NCBI GenBank assembly: GCA_002328025.1
Contig: DCVE01000014.1
Location: 5,882-69,881 of the forward strand
Source of the DNA: Patescibacteria group bacterium UBA2196
GTDB taxonomy: Bacteria; Patescibacteriota; Patescibacteriia; UBA2196
Length of the DNA: 64,000 nucleotides
Direction of reading: 5' to 3'
The notes under the pieces were generated by a model that was not told the DNA's origin, did no database searches, and was given only the letters and a program-made list of their open reading frames with translations. Position numbers and translations under genes: made by a program. The first letter of the stretch is position 1, and each line of letters starts with the position of its first letter. Of the stretch, positions 3,950 to 56,658 are shown piece by piece.

Positions 3950-6652
3950 ATGGCCCTTGTGGTGTGTAATTTTTGTCAAGGAAAAAAACAAGATTGTCCG
4001 CTTTGTCATGGTTGGCTGGCAGTTTTGGTTTTTGATGGCCGTGTTTTTTATTGGCAAAAACAACTGTCCCGCGTCAGCATCTATAATCAACGTCTATTAA
4101 ATTTGGTAAAAAAAATAATTGACGGCTTGTCCTATGTTTTTGTCTTAGCTGCTTTGGTGGTAACTTTTTATTTTTTTTATCAATTTGTCTCTACTGGTGG
4201 CGAGGCGTGGAAATTTTTTGCCCGTCAGAATATCTTAATGCGACTTTTTTGGCCAGCTTTTTTAGTTGGGTTGTATATTTTTTATCGCATGTCCAGTGAA
4301 AAAACAGCTGACGAACTGGTGATTAAAAAATATGTTGATTTTAAATTAGATTTAAATTTTGAAAGTTCTGAAATTTGGCAAACGGAAAATTTATTACCCA
4401 AGATAAATGTGGCTAAAGCTTTTCAATATCAAGCTCTGGCCTTAATTGAGCACGCTTATTTAGGAGCTGAAAATTTTGGACAGACCCTAACGCCGGCGCA
4501 CATTTTTTATGAATTATTAAAAAATAGCGCGGTTTGTGGTTATTTGACACGTCTGGGTATTAATGCGGGCGAACTTAGAGAAAAACTGGAAAAAAATTTG
4601 GTTGGTTTAGAAAAAGGCGATGGTCCGTCTTTATCAACCGCCAAGGTTTTTTTACGCGCTTATTGGGAAGCGTTTTTTAGTAATCAAAAAACTGTCACGA
4701 CCGATGAATTATTAATTGCTTGTGCCAGCGAAGAGGGTTTGATTAAAGAACTACTGGACAGTTTGGAAATTGATGTTGATAAAATACGCAATGTAGTAGA
4801 GTGGGCGCGTATTCAAAATCAAATAGCACGTCATTGGAGTGTTTTGCAGGCACGTGCTGGCCAAAAACCAAAGCACGAAATTAATCGTTCTTATACTGCC
4901 ATGGCCTCGCCTTTTTTGGATCAATTTTCTGAAGATTTAACCCAATTAGCGCGTGCGGGGGCCATTGAACCAACTGTGGGTAAAGAAAACGAGCTAACTG
5001 AGTTGCTTAGTTATTTTAATGCTGGCCGCGATGGAGTAATTTTGGTTGGTGAACAAGGAACTGGCAAGTCTTTTGTGGTTGATAGTTTGGCTGAACTAAT
5101 GGCCGCCGAAGACGTGCCAGCTCTTTTCCAGGATAAAAGATTAGTGCGTTTATCAGTCCCGGCTTTAATCGCCGGTGCTAATGAATCTGGTGCCATTGAA
5201 TTTCGTCTGATTGCCATTTTAAAAGAGGTGGCTCGGGCTGGTAATATAATTTTAGTTATTGATAACATTGAATCTTTGGTTGGTTTGGGTACCGAATCAT
5301 CAACCAGTTTAGATTTGGCGCAGGTCTTAGTCGAAGAGTTAGAAAAAGGATATTTTTTATTAATTGCTGTTTCTGATCGTGAAAAATATAATCAACATTT
5401 ACGTGATTCTTTGTTGGGCGGCTTATTGGCCGTGGTTGAAGTTAAGGAGCCGGATCGCAATGCTGCTATTCGTATTTTGGAAACCAAGGCACCCCTGTTG
5501 GAAAATAAACATAAAGTTGTTTTCTCTTACCAAGCTTTAGAAACAGCTGTTGATTTGGCTACAAAATATATTCATCGTCAGTTTTTACCAATCAAAGCCA
5601 TTACGGTTATGGAACGCGCGGCTGCTTTGGCTAGACAAAACAAAGGCGTAGGTTGTGTTGTTGCTAATGAAGACGTGATGACCGTTGTGTCTGAAATAAC
5701 CAAAATACCCTTAGAAAAAACTTCGGTTAAAGAAGCAGAAAAACTATTGAATTTGGAAGAAGAAATCCGTCACAAAATTGTGGGGCAAGACGAAGCGGTG
5801 GTGGCAGTAGCCGAAGCTTTGCGACGTTCGCGCGCCGAACTGCATCCAGGCAAACGACCAATTGCTTCTTTTTTATTTTTAGGTCCAACCGGTGTTGGCA
5901 AGACAGAAATTGCTCGTGTTTTATCAGAAATATATTTTGGTGGTGCGGAGCATTTTATTCGTCTTGATATGTCTGAGTATAGTACTCTTGACGGAGTGGC
6001 TAAATTAATTGGTTTTTCTGGGTCAACTACTCGTGGTTATTTAACAGAACGGGTGGCTGATAAACCCTTTGCTTTATTATTATTGGATGAATTTGAAAAA
6101 GCCACCGCCGAAGTACACAATCTTTTTTTACAGGTCATGGAAGATGGTCGTTTAACTGATTCTAATGGTGAGACAATTGATTTTACCAACACCATTATTA
6201 TTGCCACTTCTAACGCTGGTACAGATTTAATTCAACAAGGCTTACGTGATGGTCACACCTTGCCGGTCATTAAACAGGAATTGATAGAAACTAAATTAAA
6301 TCAATATTTTAAGGTAGAACTTTTAAACCGTTTTGATGGTATTATTATTTTTAAGCCTTTATTAATGCCAGAAGTTTTGGCTATTACTAAGTTATTACTT
6401 AATAATCTGGCAGAACTTTTAATCACAAAAAGTATCACCTTGATTTACTCAGAAACCGTGGCGCAAGAAATTTCGCAAGCTGGTTTTGATCAAACCTTGG
6501 GTGCCCGGCCTTTAAGACGAGTAATCCAAGATCAAGTGGAAAATAAAATCGCTAACTTAATATTAACCAAGACTGTTTCTCGGCGTGATAAAATTATTTT
6601 AAATAGCTTGACCGATATTCAGGTTGAAAAAGCACCACCTCTGTTTGTTTAA
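3950..6652 (+). CDS. ClpC/ClpB-like double AAA+ ATPase with N-terminal zinc-ribbon and transmembrane segment
   Basis: CNFCQGKKQDCPLCHG then TM helix; Clp_N-like repeats; D1 Walker A GEQGTGKS with Walker B ILVIDN (DN not DE); D2 GPTGVGKTE, LLLDEFEKA, GARPLRR. Confidence 0.75.
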   Translation: MALVVCNFCQGKKQDCPLCHGWLAVLVFDGRVFYWQKQLSRVSIYNQRLLNLVKKIIDGLSYVFVLAALVVTFYFFYQFVSTGGEAWKFFARQNILMRLFWPAFLVGLYIFYRMSSEKTADELVIKKYVDFKLDLNFESSEIWQTENLLPKINVAKAFQYQALALIEHAYLGAENFGQTLTPAHIFYELLKNSAVCGYLTRLGINAGELREKLEKNLVGLEKGDGPSLSTAKVFLRAYWEAFFSNQKTVTTDELLIACASEEGLIKELLDSLEIDVDKIRNVVEWARIQNQIARHWSVLQARAGQKPKHEINRSYTAMASPFLDQFSEDLTQLARAGAIEPTVGKENELTELLSYFNAGRDGVILVGEQGTGKSFVVDSLAELMAAEDVPALFQDKRLVRLSVPALIAGANESGAIEFRLIAILKEVARAGNIILVIDNIESLVGLGTESSTSLDLAQVLVEELEKGYFLLIAVSDREKYNQHLRDSLLGGLLAVVEVKEPDRNAAIRILETKAPLLENKHKVVFSYQALETAVDLATKYIHRQFLPIKAITVMERAAALARQNKGVGCVVANEDVMTVVSEITKIPLEKTSVKEAEKLLNLEEEIRHKIVGQDEAVVAVAEALRRSRAELHPGKRPIASFLFLGPTGVGKTEIARVLSEIYFGGAEHFIRLDMSEYSTLDGVAKLIGFSGSTTRGYLTERVADKPFALLLLDEFEKATAEVHNLFLQVMEDGRLTDSNGETIDFTNTIIIATSNAGTDLIQQGLRDGHTLPVIKQELIETKLNQYFKVELLNRFDGIIIFKPLLMPEVLAITKLLLNNLAELLITKSITLIYSETVAQEISQAGFDQTLGARPLRRVIQDQVENKIANLILTKTVSRRDKIILNSLTDIQVEKAPPLFV

Positions 6653-51512: not shown

Positions 51513-52787
51513 TTAAATTATTTCTCCCTCCAGATTCCAAACATTAGCTTTGGTAATTTTTACTTTAACAAAATTGCCCATTAACTTTTTACTATTATCT
51601 TTGGTGCTACCATTAATTTTAATTCTTTTAAAGTTTTTGGTTTTACCAAAAATTAACGCGTTGTCTTTTATTGTGTCTATCAGAACTTCGGTTTCTTGCC
51701 CCAACATTTTTTGGTTATTTTTCAAAGTGGTCTTTTTTAAAATTTCATTTAAAATATTTTTACGTTGTTCTTTTTCTTGTTTACTAATATTGTCTTTTAG
51801 TTTTGACGCCGCGGTGTGTGGACGCGCTGAGTAGGCGGCCAAATAGGCCATATCAAATTTTATTTTTTCCATGGCTTTAATTGTGGCTAAAAAATCTTTT
51901 TTTGTTTCGTTCGGAAAGCCGCTAATTATGTCGGTTGAAATGGTTAGATGCGGATTAACAAAATTATTTTTTCGAATTTTTTTTATCAATTTTTCATAAT
52001 GCGCCACAGTATATTTTCTGTTCATCATTTTTAAAATTTTATTAGAGCCGGACTGCAAAGGCAGGTGTAAATAGGGAACCAGGTGTTTACATTCAGCAAA
52101 ACAATTTATTAATTCATCTGACATGTCTTTGGGGTGCGAGGTTAAAAAAGATAGCCAGTAGTTGCCAGGAATTTTATCAATCTTTTTTAGGAGCTGAACA
52201 AAATTTATTTTTTTTGTTTTTTGTCGGCCGTCATAAGAATTTACGTTTTGACCTAATAAAATTATTTCTTTAACTCCTTGAACAATTAATTTGTTCACCT
52301 CACATAAAATTTCTTTTGCTGGTCTAGAATATTCTCGTCCGCGCGTAAAGGGCACGGCGCAATAAGTACAAAAATTATTACAACCCGTCATGATTGGCAC
52401 ACAAGCTGAAAACTTGGAGGTATAATTTGGTAAAATAGAAAAATAATCTTTTGGTTTTTTTATGCTTATTTTTTTATTTTTTTGAATTTTTTGTGGCCAG
52501 TTGGTCAAGTCTTTGATATCTAAAATTAAATATTTTTTTTCATTAAATTTTTTCTTGTCTTTTGGTAAAATGCAGCCGGTTAAAATAACGGTTTTATCTT
52601 TCGTTTTTCTCAACATTCCCCACACGCGATCAACGGCTGTTTGTCTAACCGAACACAAATTAAAAATTAAAAAATCGGCTTTGTTTTGATCAGCATTTTT
52701 TAAACCCATCTCGTTCATTACAGAAGCGATGCGCTCTGAATCAGAGATGTTCATTTGGCAGCCAAAAGTGGTAATGTTGTAAGTCAT
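51513..52787 (-). CDS. miaB: tRNA-i6A37 methylthiotransferase (radical SAM MTTase)
   Basis: TFGCQMN, CNNFCTYCAVP, TRAM C-terminus. Confidence 0.9.
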   Translation of the reverse strand: MTYNITTFGCQMNISDSERIASVMNEMGLKNADQNKADFLIFNLCSVRQTAVDRVWGMLRKTKDKTVILTGCILPKDKKKFNEKKYLILDIKDLTNWPQKIQKNKKISIKKPKDYFSILPNYTSKFSACVPIMTGCNNFCTYCAVPFTRGREYSRPAKEILCEVNKLIVQGVKEIILLGQNVNSYDGRQKTKKINFVQLLKKIDKIPGNYWLSFLTSHPKDMSDELINCFAECKHLVPYLHLPLQSGSNKILKMMNRKYTVAHYEKLIKKIRKNNFVNPHLTISTDIISGFPNETKKDFLATIKAMEKIKFDMAYLAAYSARPHTAASKLKDNISKQEKEQRKNILNEILKKTTLKNNQKMLGQETEVLIDTIKDNALIFGKTKNFKRIKINGSTKDNSKKLMGNFVKVKITKANVWNLEGEII

Positions 52788-53205
52788 AAGATTAAAATAA
52801 TCTTAACATATTGGCTTAAAAAAACAAAAACACTTCGTTTTTTCAGAAGTGCTTTGATTTTTGTTTTGGTTTTTTTTAAAGAGCAGGGGACTAACTATAT
52901 TAAATAGTTTTTATGGGGTAACACAATTATTTTAGACGCCTTGTGTGTGGCGTTTTAATGACCCCCAAAAAACTTAATTACTCAATAAAAAAACAGTCGA
53001 CACCAGAAAAATTGCGACTGCCACATAAAAATAAGACTTTATTAGTTTATCGGTTCTTTTGTCAATAAAAAAACCTGAATTGCTGGTTTCTTGTTTATAC
53101 ATATTTTTATTTTTGTTTTTATTTTAACTAACAAATTAAGTATAGCACACTTTTTTACAAAAGTCAATCAAAATAGGTAATTTTTATGCACATTACCCTT
53201 TTCTA

Positions 53206-53234
53206 TTGACAAGAATTAGTTTTTGTAATACACT
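53206..53234 (+). promoter_or_regulatory. candidate promoter for the radical SAM island
   Basis: TTGACA at 53206-53211 with TAcAcT/TAATAC -10 candidates 14-17 nt downstream. Confidence 0.25.
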
Positions 53235-53318
53235 TTTTAAATAAAATTTAAAAAATACCTTTAAAAGCACAGAATATAAATAATAAAGATAAAGGGTATT
53301 ATTAGTTGGAGGTTACAG

Positions 53319-53558
53319 ATGGACAGACAAGATATTCTCACTCGGGCAAAAAAAATATGCCCGGCAGATTTAGAGCCAAGCACAATTGCTCGACGCCTCA
53401 ATAGGGAATTTGAACTTGAACTGGCTGCAGCTCAAGGCATCATGTTCCGATTGAAACCGGATCTTTTTGCGGGAATAAAAAATGTTCAACAAGTTATCGT
53501 GATATTGCTCGATCTGCTTGATGTCGAGTTAACCCACGACAAGCCAGGTTGGCCATAA
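53319..53558 (+). CDS. 79-aa protein ending ...LTHDKPGWP; candidate long-leader precursor peptide of the rSAM island
   Basis: GGAGG RBS 7 nt upstream; C-terminal THDKPGW shared with the downstream 38-aa ORF; elevated GC. Confidence 0.4.
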   Translation: MDRQDILTRAKKICPADLEPSTIARRLNREFELELAAAQGIMFRLKPDLFAGIKNVQQVIVILLDLLDVELTHDKPGWP

Positions 53559-53577
53559 ATCAGAATAGGAGGGGAGT

Positions 53578-54588
53578 ATGGAATCTCAGTTTAATGTGCC
53601 AGTGCCAGTGCATACCGTTCTGAAAGTTTCGGAAAGGTGTAATCTGGGTTGTGTCGGGTGCTATTATAAAAGACACATGAGAAATAGACCGAGCACTATA
53701 GACCCAGTAACCACTACGTTACTTTTGGCCAAGAAAATAAAAAAATACAACGATAGCTTCCAGAAACCTTCGGACATCATTCTGCATGGCGGAGAACCAG
53801 GGTTGATTGGTCTTGGCCAGCTAGAAGAGATCGTTGACGGTATTCATCAGGCCGGAGCGGCCGTCAGTTTTGTCACCAACCTGGCCTTTGCCCGGCTCAA
53901 TGATCGTTGGCTTGCATTATTAGCCAGGTTCGATCATTTTGGCGTTTCTTTGAATGGGGACGAGAGGGGCAATGCCGGACGAGCATTTAAGAATGGTCGA
54001 GCTTCTTTCCCGCTTGTCACTCGAAACCTGAGGGCACTAAGAGAAGCTAAGGTTCAAAACTATGGCATTATCTGCACTGTCACCAGAGACAATGTCGGAC
54101 GTGGTTTTGACACAGCCATTTTTCTGCATAGCCTATGCACAGATGTAAAAATCCTACCCATGGATCAGCCAAATTTTAAGCCGATGGAGCTCGCCACTTT
54201 TTTAGAGGAGTCTCTTCGGGCGTTTTTGGTGCTTGATGATCCGGAATTTCGTCTGTCATCCGTAGATGAGGGGCTACGCCTTTTAAAGGGGATAGATCCA
54301 TTGAGCTGCACATTAAGCAGACAGTTCGCCTGTAAGTATAATATTACAGTAAAGTTGAACGGCGACGTATTGCCATGTGACTCAGTCGGGGTGGACCTAT
54401 TCCAGATCGGTGGGAATCTTTTCCAAACAGAAATGGATGAGATTCTATCTGGTCCAAAGTGGTCAGGCTTGATGCACCAATTTGAAAGCGCAAAAAAAAG
54501 TCAATTCCATTGCGCTTGTACCAATGGTGTTTACCTTGAGGCGTGGCAAAAATACGTGAATACCCTTAAGGAAACACTTGGAAGTTAA
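53578..54588 (+). CDS. Radical SAM enzyme with partial SPASM/twitch-like C-terminal domain (peptide-modifying maturase candidate)
   Basis: CNLGCVGCYY (CxxxCxxC), ILHGGEPGL, SLNGDER..NGRASF; C-terminal CKYNITVKLNGDVLPC (Cx9Gx4C) and HCAC; AGGAGG RBS. Confidence 0.8.
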   Translation: MESQFNVPVPVHTVLKVSERCNLGCVGCYYKRHMRNRPSTIDPVTTTLLLAKKIKKYNDSFQKPSDIILHGGEPGLIGLGQLEEIVDGIHQAGAAVSFVTNLAFARLNDRWLALLARFDHFGVSLNGDERGNAGRAFKNGRASFPLVTRNLRALREAKVQNYGIICTVTRDNVGRGFDTAIFLHSLCTDVKILPMDQPNFKPMELATFLEESLRAFLVLDDPEFRLSSVDEGLRLLKGIDPLSCTLSRQFACKYNITVKLNGDVLPCDSVGVDLFQIGGNLFQTEMDEILSGPKWSGLMHQFESAKKSQFHCACTNGVYLEAWQKYVNTLKETLGS

Positions 54589-54607
54589 CCAACTGAAAGG
54601 AGATTAG

Positions 54608-54724
54608 TATGACAGCGCTCAACGCTGCAGTGTTGCGTGTCATCGCCGAAAGCACCCACCCTCGCACGTGCCAAATTACTACCCATGACAAGGGATGGGA
54701 CAAAGATTGGGGCAAAAAGAAATA
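54608..54724 (+). CDS. 38-aa peptide MTALNAAVLRVIAESTHPRTCQITTHDKGWDKDWGKKK; candidate RiPP precursor, not in the ORF track
   Basis: AAAGGAG RBS 7 nt upstream; 20 nt after rSAM stop; Trp/Lys-rich C-terminus with W-x-K motifs; shares THDK-GW with the 79-aa ORF. Confidence 0.45.
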
Positions 54725-54832
54725 GGCGAGGAACACCATAGCACGAGGGCACTAAACAAATCACAAAAAAGATTTGTCCCTGGTGTCCTTTTTAATTAAA
54801 TATAAAAAATAAATTATAGCAAAAAAATATAG

Positions 54833-54866
54833 CAGGGTCTCTCATAGAGTACCCTGTATTTTTTTG
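54833..54866. terminator. bidirectional rho-independent terminator between the rSAM island (+) and thrS (-)
   Basis: cagggt-ctctcatagagt-accctg hairpin flanked by A-run upstream and T-run downstream. Confidence 0.6.
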
Positions 54867-54888
54867 ACAGTTTTAAATTTGCATTCCT

Positions 54889-56658
54889 TTACAACTCAAC
54901 TGTTTTATCATCAACCACCTTCTTGATATGCTCCATAAATTTTTCTTTTTCAAATTCCACGGTTTCTTTTTCCCCGCGTTTTCGGATTTGTAGTTTATCC
55001 GAGCCCATTTCTTTATCGCCGATCACCAGCATATAAGGAATTTTTTCTGCTACGGCTTTACGGATTTTATTGCCCACGGTTTCATTTTCATCCCAAACCT
55101 CCACCCTGATATTTTCATTTTTAAATTCTTGAGCTAATTTTTGGCAATGTGCGGCATGTGCTTCAGCGACAGAAATTATTACCACCTGTGTTGGAGAAAG
55201 CCATACAGGAAACGCCCCAGCATAACGTTCAATTAAGAACGCCATTGTTCTTTCTAGACAACCAATTGAAGAACGATGAATAACTATCGGTCTTTCTTGC
55301 TCTCCGTTTTTATTAGTAAAAAACAAGTCAAATCTTTCCGGCATCACAAAATCATATTGTACAGTAAAGGCAGTTTCTTCATTGCCAGAAATTTTTTTCA
55401 TTTGAATATCAATTTTTGGTCCATAAAATGCAGCTTCGTTGGCAGCTTCATAAAATGGCGCCTTAACTTCAGTCAAAACTTCTCGCAACACATTTTCGGC
55501 GTAATTCCAAGCCTCGTCATCTTTATAATATTTTTTAGTATCTGATCGATCGCCCAGTGAAAGGCGATAGCGATAATCAACACCTTTTACCAATCCCAAA
55601 GTTCCATTAATAAAATCTATTAATTCTAAAACCTCTTTAATAACTTGTTTAGCCTGATCTTTGGCCGAGATAATATGAGCATCAGCTAGACAAAACATTC
55701 TTACACGAGTTAATCCAGACAACTCACCACTTTTTTCGTAACGATATTGGTGAGCAATTTCACCAATACGATAGGGTAAATCACGATAACTGTGCATTTC
55801 AGATTTATAAAACATAAAATGGTGAGGACAAGTCATTGGCTTTAGAATCAATTCCTCATCGTCTATTTTCATAACTGGGTACATAGTGTCCTTATAGTAA
55901 GGATAGTGTCCAGATTTTTTATAAAGATCAACTTTTGCCAAATCAGGAGTGACCACATGATGATAGCCGTGTTTTATTTCTTCATCAATGGTGAATCTCT
56001 CTAGCTCTCTTTTAATAGTGGCCCCCTTTGGTCCAAACGTTGGTAAGCCTTTGCCTACTAAATCAGAAAATACGAAAAGTCCCAAATCTTTGCCCACAAC
56101 TCTGTGGTCTCTTTTTTTTGCTTCTTCTATATTTTTTAAATATTCACCAAGTTCTTTTTTAGATTCAAAAGCCGTGCCATAAATTCTAGTTAACATTTTA
56201 TTTTTCTCATCTCCATGCCAATAAGCGCCAGCAATTTTTAATAATTTAAAAGCTTTAATTTCGCCAGTTGAATTGACATGTGGCCCGGCGCACAAATCAA
56301 CAAATTCATTACCAACCCAATACACAGTAGCTTTTTCTCCCCGCGTTTCTATTTCATCCAGCCATTCTTCTTTATATTCATTGCTCTTAAATAACTCTCG
56401 CGCTTCGGCAACGGAAATTTCTTTTTTTGTAATTGGTAAATTTTCCGCAATAATTTTTTGCATTTCCGCTTCAATTTTTGGAAAATTTTCCTCGGAAATT
56501 TTTGTTGCTGAATCAAAATCAAAATAAAAGCCCTCGTCAGTAGCCGGCCCCATCGCCATTTTTATACTAGGATAAAGCTTGAGCATGGCCATTGTCAGCA
56601 CATGCTCGGCGCTATGGCGTAGTGCCCACAAACTGTCTTTGTGTTGTTCTTTAGACAT
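54889..56658 (-). CDS. thrS: Threonyl-tRNA synthetase (lacks N-terminal TGS domain)
   Basis: editing-domain HxxxH (LRHSAEHVL), class II core, anticodon-binding C-terminus. Confidence 0.9.
   Translation of the reverse strand: MSKEQHKDSLWALRHSAEHVLTMAMLKLYPSIKMAMGPATDEGFYFDFDSATKISEENFPKIEAEMQKIIAENLPITKKEISVAEARELFKSNEYKEEWLDEIETRGEKATVYWVGNEFVDLCAGPHVNSTGEIKAFKLLKIAGAYWHGDEKNKMLTRIYGTAFESKKELGEYLKNIEEAKKRDHRVVGKDLGLFVFSDLVGKGLPTFGPKGATIKRELERFTIDEEIKHGYHHVVTPDLAKVDLYKKSGHYPYYKDTMYPVMKIDDEELILKPMTCPHHFMFYKSEMHSYRDLPYRIGEIAHQYRYEKSGELSGLTRVRMFCLADAHIISAKDQAKQVIKEVLELIDFINGTLGLVKGVDYRYRLSLGDRSDTKKYYKDDEAWNYAENVLREVLTEVKAPFYEAANEAAFYGPKIDIQMKKISGNEETAFTVQYDFVMPERFDLFFTNKNGEQERPIVIHRSSIGCLERTMAFLIERYAGAFPVWLSPTQVVIISVAEAHAAHCQKLAQEFKNENIRVEVWDENETVGNKIRKAVAEKIPYMLVIGDKEMGSDKLQIRKRGEKETVEFEKEKFMEHIKKVVDDKTVEL

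Follow-up and report, generated by a model that had tools for sequence, protein, structure and literature searches.

A compositionally foreign island with a radical SAM enzyme and a candidate precursor of a crosslinked peptide in a Patescibacteria contig

The 64,000-nucleotide stretch of contig DCVE01000014.1 from the Patescibacteria group bacterium UBA2196 (hereafter the window) contains, between miaB and thrS, three tandem plus-strand open reading frames (ORFs) that encode a 79-aa protein, a 336-aa radical S-adenosylmethionine (SAM) enzyme and a 38-aa peptide (Table 1). In our reading, they probably form a horizontally acquired, minimal cassette for a ribosomally synthesised peptide with post-translational modifications (RiPP), whose product would be a triceptide-like, multiply crosslinked cationic peptide. 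This reading builds on what the analysis established: the boundaries and foreignness of the island, the class and motifs of the enzyme, and the co-conservation and coding status of the peptide gene. A self-contained cassette, equipped with its own promoter-like site, ribosome-binding sites and terminator, explains the layout best.

Table 1. Positions in the window of the island, its genes and their predicted features
Feature	Position	Strand	Evidence
Inserted island, ~1.69 kb	53176-54869		blastn against the nearest relative (L053), which lacks the island
Promoter-like site TTGACA-17-TACACT	53206-53234	+	consensus scan, 10/12 matches
79-aa protein, predicted all-helical, conserved C-terminal tail	53319-53558	+	GGAGG Shine-Dalgarno site; 53%-identical orthologue
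336-aa radical SAM enzyme, degenerate SPASM (twitch-like) C-terminal domain	53578-54588	+	Pfam, NCBIfam and PDB sequence matches
CNLGCVGC, the CxxxCxxC radical SAM cluster motif (C21, C25, C28)	53638-53661	+	invariant in 45 aligned relatives
GGEP SAM-binding motif (G71-P74)	53788-53799	+	invariant in 45 aligned relatives
Auxiliary-cluster cysteines C244, C252-x9-G262-x4-C267, C312 (plus C314)	54307-54519	+	alignment with 42 SPASM relatives
38-aa predicted precursor peptide; leader ~1-25, core ~26-38	54609-54725	+	Shine-Dalgarno site, conservation, coding signature
Core motif H-D-K-G-W-D-K-D-W-G-K, three aromatic-x-Lys units, predicted ring sites	54684-54716	+	orthologue comparison
Putative bidirectional intrinsic terminator	54820-54866	both	hairpin between A7 and T7 runs, common to cassette (+) and thrS (-)

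The enzyme, its homologues and the two small proteins

The cluster motif, the GGE motif and a score of 39.2 bits with the Pfam model Radical_SAM PF04055 (cut-off 29.5) place the 336-aa protein in the radical SAM superfamily. The Pfam SPASM model PF13186 scored 21.9 bits, barely above its cut-off of 21.5. When the seven-cysteine pattern of PF13186/TIGR04085 (C-x9-15-G-x4-C ... C-x2-C-x5-C-x3-C ... C) was tested, the CxxCx5CxxxC block and the final cysteine were found to be missing from both the window enzyme and its orthologue P0002. With this block lost, the C-terminal domain looks twitch-like and may hold one auxiliary cluster, for which C244, C252, C267 and C312, invariant between the two proteins, would be fitting ligands; the twitch-type model NF033640 gave 26-45 bits against a cut-off of 170. 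C314 of the CxC element (C312-A-C314) is not conserved in the orthologue. The motifs listed by a first-pass annotation of this DNA (CxxxCxxC as CNLGCVGC, GGEP, Cx9Gx4C and CxC) are all present. Its assignment of SPASM/twitch cysteines holds as regards a radical SAM enzyme with a SPASM-type C-terminus; it needs amending in that the domain is degenerate, with one auxiliary-cluster motif and an unconserved C314.

Comparison with curated families, which the first-pass annotation had suggested, gave peptide maturases and anaerobic sulfatase maturases (anSMEs) as the nearest relatives, and no curated cut-off was reached. The best full-length NCBIfam match was anSME with 95.1 bits (cut-off 349), while residues 1-175 alone matched FxsB (75.6 bits), anSME (66.6), YhhB (64.1) and AmcB (61.1). 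Against the cut-offs of the triceptide synthase models, the full-length scores were 73.4/370 bits for FxsB TIGR04269, 63.3/445 for YhhB NF041707, 63.0/425 for AmcB NF041718, 27.9/450 for XyeB TIGR04496 and 29.9/310 for GrrM/OscB TIGR04261; P0002 and the more distant homologue P0007 were likewise below them. The darobactin and dynobactin models gave 25/650 bits (DarE NF038005) and 67/450 bits (DynA NF041298), and WgkB NF050035 matched P0007 only (46 bits, cut-off 650). The anSME family TIGR03942 is defined by at least 349 bits and a C/S-x-P/A-x-R substrate, and neither was found; there was also no sulfatase adjacent to the cassette in the window or in the contigs with homologous cassettes (L001/L002 and L087-L089). 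In a PDB sequence search, the best solved relative was the triceptide synthase ChlB (9gm3), which forms multiple cyclophanes, followed by anSME (4k37). The enzyme's neighbours by sequence are mostly sub-threshold anSME-like proteins; the nearest ones also include P0008, a bona fide YhhB/FxsB protein (596 bits). The enzyme lies between the anaerobic sulfatase maturases and the three-residue cyclophane synthases, and it is predicted to be a peptide crosslinking maturase.

The AlphaFold2 (AF2) model of the enzyme was poor, with a predicted local distance difference test (pLDDT) score of 53 overall and below 50 for residues 239-318. Its Foldseek matches (CteB, viperin, HydE and SkfB) confirm the radical SAM barrel only. 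Membership of a defence system or phage family was rejected, as the respective libraries returned only generic radical SAM matches and weak viperin matches (pVip, 39.9 bits). In the public gene call that is widely deposited (P0001, 303 aa), the enzyme begins only at M34, 33 codons late, so that 53578-53676 of the window are dropped; this call lacks the CxxxCxxC motif and has no Pfam domain recorded, and genome mining based on PF04055 would therefore probably miss the family. The full 336-aa call is present in one source.

The enzyme has very few close relatives. An exhaustive HMMER search of 1.84 billion representative proteins returned 4,580 relatives at E <= 1e-3; below 1e-30 there were just two clusters, its own and that of P0007, which is likewise 336 aa long and 26-27% identical to the window enzyme (134 bits). 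The orthologue P0002 (55% identity) is encoded on contigs L001 and L002 in the same gene order as in the window (80 aa, 336 aa, 38 aa), amid CorA, a PseudoU synthase, L10 and L7/L12, a context unlike that of the window. P0007 lies in a third, again unrelated context, with DprA and Vut_1, on L087-L089; a 54-aa ORF directly follows its gene, and no homologue of the 79-aa protein was found in this cassette. When 5.8 billion proteins were searched by a word index, with the enzyme, the 79-aa protein or a profile of the three peptides as query, only the query itself, one orthologue and the weak matches P0003 and P0004 came back, and the contexts of these last two were uninformative. The family comprises three known loci, all metagenomic. 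Directly 3' of the L001 cassette lies a gene (4358-6520) for a 720-aa protein with no recorded Pfam domain; its GC content at third codon positions (GC3) is host-like (0.32), so it is probably outside the cassette.

The 38-aa ORF starts 20 nt after the enzyme stop codon and ends in ITTHDKGWDKDWGKKK. The full peptides are MTALNAAVLRVIAESTHPRTCQITTHDKGWDKDWGKKK in the window, MHALKKAMLLVGRQKLAGCSCGITTHEKGWRKMWPKKA in L001/L002 and, for the 54-aa ORF of L087 (6015-6179), MEALNIAIIRNKPIRFRLLVLFLSLFFSAPSYKRGWDGNWPQWWKAPAPNKQLE. All three share an MxAL(N/K)xA start and a (H/Y)-x-(K/R)-G-W-x-x-x-W core, so that a short ORF with the same leader motif and an aromatic/basic GW core directly follows the enzyme gene in both homologues. 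Comparison of the window and L001 genes gave identities of 0.62, 0.62 and 0.33 at the first, second and third codon positions and 12 codons with synonymous differences only, which is a clear protein-coding signature. On comparative evidence the unannotated 38-aa ORF is a real gene, because it is conserved downstream of both enzyme homologues and carries this signature. The first-pass annotation, which had pointed out both the ORF and its W-x-K spacing, was right on both counts, and the aromatic-x-Lys spacing is exactly what stays conserved.

The L001/L002 core reads H-E-K-G-W-R-K-M-W-P-K. Compared with the window, the aromatic and Lys residues are invariant, whereas all three x positions have changed. 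Such invariant aromatic and Lys residues around varying positions are the pattern expected for the aromatic1-X2-X3 motifs of triceptides (PMC11499958). A triceptide precursor is recognised by such motifs encoded beside a radical SAM enzyme, and they were found at all three loci: HDK, WDK and WGK in the window, HEK, WRK and WPK in L001/L002, and YKR, WPQ and WDG in L087, the last in the P0007 peptide core Y-K-R-G-W-D-G-N-W-P-Q. When the window is translated in six frames, the strict core pattern turns up a single time. The window and L001 peptides both keep Cys21, while the L087 peptide has no Cys at all. In the L087 peptide, a hydrophobic stretch that resembles a signal peptide, RFRLLVLFLSLFFSA, separates the leader motif from the Trp-rich core, and both 38-aa peptides are without it.

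For the 79-aa protein, no match was found in Pfam, NCBIfam, PHROGs or PADLOC. Its 53%-identical, 80-aa orthologue occupies the same position in L001/L002 (tblastn 1e-20), and the near-invariant parts are an internal helix, NREFELELAAAQGIMF(R/K)LK, and the tail D(K/R)PGWP. A single-sequence AF2 model (pLDDT 71) consists of helices H3-13, H20-45 and H47-72 with a disordered tail (residues 75-79 below 50), and gave no PDB fold match below E = 1. A PqqD-like RiPP recognition element (RRE), for which a winged helix with a three-stranded beta-sheet and a PqqD-family hidden Markov model (HMM) match were sought, was rejected: there was no HMM match at E <= 1, the model is all-helical and no fold match was obtained. 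In both orthologous cassettes, the tail (53534-53555 in the window) resembles the [DE][KR]GW start of the peptide core (54684-54698). The tail could be a pseudo-substrate or docking element. The two small ORFs had been thought to share a THDK-x-GW core, but this did not survive the comparison: the window protein ends in ELTHDKPGWP and the orthologue in RGQDRPGWP, only D(K/R)PGW(P) is shared, and the third cassette lacks the protein. On this evidence, an accessory role for the 79-aa protein (a candidate chaperone or recognition partner) is more likely than one as a second precursor.

Boundaries and composition of the island

The limits of the island were set by comparison with the nearest relative, the metagenome-assembled genome (MAG) contig DAOOQN010000004.1 (L053), which lacks the cassette; its neighbouring 381-aa gene and miaB are 93% and 89% identical to those of the window at the amino-acid level. 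By blastn, the left flank (51985-53175) corresponds to L053 8036-9232 with 89% DNA identity and the right flank (54870-55236) to L053 7495-7859 with 76%. At the position of the island, L053, a relative with 84-89% DNA identity in the flanks, has approximately 177 unrelated bases. In a Kuenenbacteria MAG (L008), thrS directly abuts miaB. The window ThrS is 75% identical to that of Candidatus Kuenenbacteria MAGs, which places the host in Patescibacteria. The empty site in L053, the abutting genes in L008 and the composition indicate that the island, which is discrete and compositionally foreign, was acquired horizontally in the window lineage and not lost elsewhere.

The GC contents of the three genes are 0.44 (79 aa), 0.46 (336 aa) and 0.52 (38 aa), against a window gene mean of 0.352; for the island as a whole the values are 0.45-0.48 against ~0.33 in the flanks. 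The GC3 of the enzyme gene is 0.457, the window maximum (against 0.288 +/- 0.053; z ~ +3.2), and that of the peptide gene 0.615. Shine-Dalgarno (SD) sites lie 5-7 nt 5' of the three ATGs: GGAGG (79 aa), AGGAGG (336 aa) and AAAGGAG (38 aa). In a crude set of 47 ORFs of at least 150 aa, called from the first ATG across the window, a GG-containing SD match of at least 4 nt within 20 nt upstream was found for the 336-aa gene only and for none of the 46 others. A start-independent scan located other SD-like sites mostly in frame inside longer genes. The cassettes of L001 and L087 are similar in this respect, being the GC3-richest genes, with SD sites, amid AT-rich and SD-poor neighbours. The retention of strong SD sites in all three cassettes (window 53300-54610, L001 2790-4090 and L087 4970-6015), where almost all of the surrounding genes have none, could reflect repeated recent transfer or a functional need.

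Both miaB (51513-52787) and thrS (54889-56658) are on the minus strand. The cassette runs opposite to the two of them, so that it converges with thrS and diverges from miaB. The two flanking genes are therefore not convergent, as they had been described. Most of the picture drawn in the first-pass annotation was borne out: all three ORFs are where it had put them, SD sites precede all three and none of the 46 other long ORFs, the segment is distinct from the rest of the window in GC and GC3, a stable hairpin with A- and T-runs stands at the place of the proposed bidirectional terminator, and horizontal acquisition agrees with the host-unlike composition and SD usage and with the empty site in a close relative.

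The terminator hairpin (dG -20.5 kcal/mol, z = -5.56) was not equalled in stability by any of 200 shuffles, and its sequence is unlike that of the thrS terminator of L053. As a promoter for the cassette, the upstream consensus site is suggestive only, and the count of such sites is not greater than the shuffle expectation; a similar site, TTGACA-17-TAAGCT, is also present upstream of the L001 cassette. No Rfam family reached the gathering score anywhere in the window, and no tRNA, rRNA or riboswitch was found in this way.

No integrase or other mobile-element signature was found at the island. With the enzyme or its alignment as query, GTDB genomes, metagenome contigs and viral contigs yielded nothing beyond L002, and the relatives retrieved from plasmids by tblastn were all at most 28% identical and carried the annotation anSME, YhhB or plain radical SAM protein. 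These searches therefore pointed neither to a phage or plasmid vector nor to a donor lineage. Near the island ends, at 53233-53254 and 54787-54808, there is a direct repeat of 22 nt that is AT-rich and imperfect (82% identical) and probably due to chance in AT-rich DNA.

The thrS gene of L053 (6001-7842) was noticed to be a mosaic relative to that of the window. Its product is 62-86% identical to the window ThrS within residues 1-200 and 84% identical at the C-terminus, but just 38-58% over residues ~200-500, while the window and Kuenenbacteria ThrS show a uniform identity of 66-86%. L053 thus carries a replaced central thrS segment, and in this lineage the region around thrS and miaB appears to be a hot spot of recombination.

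Proposed chemistry and alternative explanations

We infer that the 38-aa peptide is the substrate of the enzyme. As precursor, it would be recognised through its MxAL(N/K)xA leader, possibly with help from the 79-aa helical protein, and its C-terminal core HDK-G-WDK-D-WGK-KK would then be modified. By analogy with the three-residue cyclophane synthases, SAM would be reductively cleaved at the C21/C25/C28 cluster, and the 5'-deoxyadenosyl radical would take one of the sp3 hydrogens of Lys, with C-beta the most likely position. The resulting Lys radical would add to the imidazole or indole ring two residues upstream, and a single auxiliary [4Fe-4S] cluster (C244/C252/C267/C312) would accept an electron, allowing re-aromatisation. 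The product would carry up to three small rings with a mass change of -2 Da each, one from His-x-Lys and two from Trp-x-Lys. Such a tri-cyclophane appears most likely because the conserved HxK-G-WxK-x-WxK core is encoded beside an enzyme with a cyclophane-synthase-like catalytic core. Lys/Trp crosslinking is suggested by motif and family resemblance; the crosslink type, the regiochemistry, the role of the 79-aa protein and any biological activity of the cationic, Trp/Lys-rich product are likewise inferences.

Several observations weigh against a triceptide-like product. No curated family cut-off is passed, anSME is the best full-length HMM match even at 95 of the 349 bits required, and identity to any characterised family is at most ~27%. 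The cyclophane HMMs cover only the N-terminal radical SAM core, the least function-specific part, and the AF2 model (pLDDT 53) and its fold matches do not separate subfamilies. One X3 position of the P0007 peptide is Gly (W-D-G), where no crosslink to C-beta can form, and conservation of the motif is to that extent incomplete; the alternating core is also equally readable as Lys-x-Trp. The cassette includes neither a protease nor an exporter. As the family has three members, covariation statistics are thin.

The ambiguity of the core bears on an alternative in which cassette and substrate are the same and the radical chemistry is another: streptide-like K-x-W crosslinking, crosslinking at Lys C-alpha, C-delta or C-gamma of the WgkB/WprB type, a thioether at Cys21, epimerisation or formylglycine-type oxidation. 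We consider this unlikely. The arrangement aromatic-x-K-x-aromatic means that K28-G-W30 and K32-D-W34 are conserved too, R-G-W is kept in the distant homologue's peptide, and the window core contains W-G-K, the WgkB motif (PMC11851443); however, this WGK is WPK in the orthologue, the WgkB, StrB and DarE models score below the triceptide synthase and anSME models, and the 46 bits with NF050035 were obtained for P0007 only. Cys21 is common to the window and L001 peptides, but the Cys-free third peptide means that a thioether is not the chemistry of the whole family. Similarly, anSME is the best full-length HMM and the maturases of sactipeptides and of the ranthipeptide type (PapB) also score, while the peptides do not contain the C/S-x-P-x-R sulfatase motif. 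It is improbable that the 79-aa protein is itself the substrate, either as a second precursor with a long helical leader or as a pseudo-substrate, with the enzyme acting on or binding the D(K/R)PGWP tail. It does lie directly upstream of the enzyme, the usual position of a precursor, and its tail, which is disordered in the model and invariant in the two orthologues, is similar to the [DE][KR]GW of the core. Nevertheless, THDK gives way to RGQDRPGWP in the orthologue, nothing follows W-P that could complete an aromatic-x-X3 unit, the third cassette has no homologue, and the strongest conservation is in the internal helix NREFELELAAAQGIMF, as for a folded partner protein.

A non-peptide role appears very improbable; it would make the enzyme a maturase of the anSME or cofactor kind, or else a defence enzyme like viperin, with the small ORFs present by chance. 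The anSME match leads the full-length NCBIfam list (95 bits), the near neighbours are mostly sub-threshold anSME-like proteins and there are weak pVip matches (39.9 bits), yet these scores are far under their cut-offs (anSME 95 against 349, viperin ~40 against 180 bits), none of the three contexts has a sulfatase or nucleotide kinase beside the cassette, and the downstream peptide gene, with its coding signature, is co-conserved across ~26-55% enzyme identity. Of the outcomes by which the first-pass annotation would have had its proposal fall, none was seen, whether a robust grouping of the enzyme with non-peptide radical SAM families, a lack of conservation of the small ORFs beside homologous enzymes or a composition indistinguishable from the host.

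Going beyond a triceptide-like product, the loci could represent a mobile mini-cassette set in three AT-rich, SD-poor neighbourhoods, one of which is shown to be Patescibacteria. This tentative and rather doubtful extension would make the enzymes a new, single-auxiliary-cluster clade of cyclophane synthases that forms three contiguous rings (one His-x-Lys and two Trp-x-Lys) in a 13-residue cationic core, with a new helical partner, its D(K/R)PGWP tail mimicking the substrate motif, as pseudo-substrate or chaperone.

Relation to known systems

Radical SAM cyclophane RiPPs, among them the darobactin and dynobactin antibiotics, have been intensively mined. The finding reported here is well founded computationally, but it is not a new principle. 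If the extended reading of a mobile mini-cassette is true, the pathway could rank with the first of the cyclophane RiPP type to be described in bacteria of the Candidate Phyla Radiation (CPR), with a possible role in the interaction of CPR bacteria with host cells. The compact enzyme (336 aa, apparently with one auxiliary cluster) and the short 38-aa substrate with mixed His/Trp motifs would be useful for studying how ring type and order are controlled. For gene gain in a reduced CPR genome, the island offers a clean example, since its boundaries are placed to the base and an empty site is available for comparison. Strong ribosome-binding sites in all three cassettes, amid genes with few or none, raise the question of how imported genes get translated.

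With the anSMEs (TIGR03942; PDB 4K36-4K39), the window enzyme shares the best full-length HMM match, the sole full-length PDB sequence match, the C-x9-G-x4-C element and the overall length class. It differs from them in its score (95 against 349 bits) and in lacking the CxxCx5CxxxC block; there is no sulfatase nearby, and the partner peptides of the window family have no C/S-x-P-x-R. DarE, DynA, StrB and WgkB are radical SAM/SPASM enzymes that make Trp-Lys carbon-carbon crosslinks in darobactin, dynobactin, streptide and tryglysin, respectively. The W-S-K ring of darobactin has the same W-x-K spacing, and DynA is among the better HMM matches (67-92 bits). However, the matches to these enzymes are below cut-offs of 450-650 bits, and the window cassette has no W-x-W ether motif, no shp/rgg context and no N-terminal RRE domain.

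The likeness to triceptide synthases (HtkB, ChlB, MicB, YhhB, FxsB, XyeB and AmcB) is more extensive. Triceptides are defined by aromatic-to-C-beta crosslinks on aromatic1-X2-X3 motifs; HtkB joins His-C2 to Lys-C-beta on HTK (PMC11499958), and MicB forms three aromatic-x-Lys cyclophanes in one peptide (PMC12912966). Like these systems, the window combines a radical SAM enzyme that has a C-terminal iron-sulfur domain with a precursor of repeated aromatic1-X2-X3 motifs, including HxK as for HtkB and several aromatic-x-Lys units as for MicB, and its radical SAM core scores best with FxsB, YhhB and AmcB, with ChlB as the best solved relative. Unlike in these systems, the enzyme scores 61-76 bits against cut-offs of 310-450, over residues ~12-175 only, and lacks the second auxiliary-cluster cysteine block; the precursor gene is downstream of the enzyme gene and not upstream, the core mixes His and Trp units within 13 residues, and the hosts of the window family appear to be CPR bacteria.

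The WprABC system of Xenorhabdus, compared by description only, makes Trp-C5 to Arg-C-gamma crosslinks on three WPR motifs, and its precursor resembles that of the window in having three W-x-basic motifs. Published descriptions give WprB a twitch domain that holds one auxiliary cluster, and crosslinking requires WprC, a small hypothetical partner without PqqD/RRE similarity (PMC11851443). For the 79-aa protein, WprC is the best precedent; another is offered by HtkC, found to co-purify with its precursor (PMC11499958). The window enzyme has no Aux II block but retains cysteines of the Aux I type, which are the ones that WprB is said to be missing, and WprC is longer, with 97-103 aa against 79 aa. 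The enzyme reaches none of the curated cut-offs, does not have the full SPASM motif and falls outside the named enzyme families; the cassette would work like a triceptide-type RiPP pathway and is best filed as a new, very small family, apparently distinguished by a single auxiliary-cluster motif, a downstream precursor gene, a mixed His/Trp core, a novel helical partner and recent import into a CPR bacterium.

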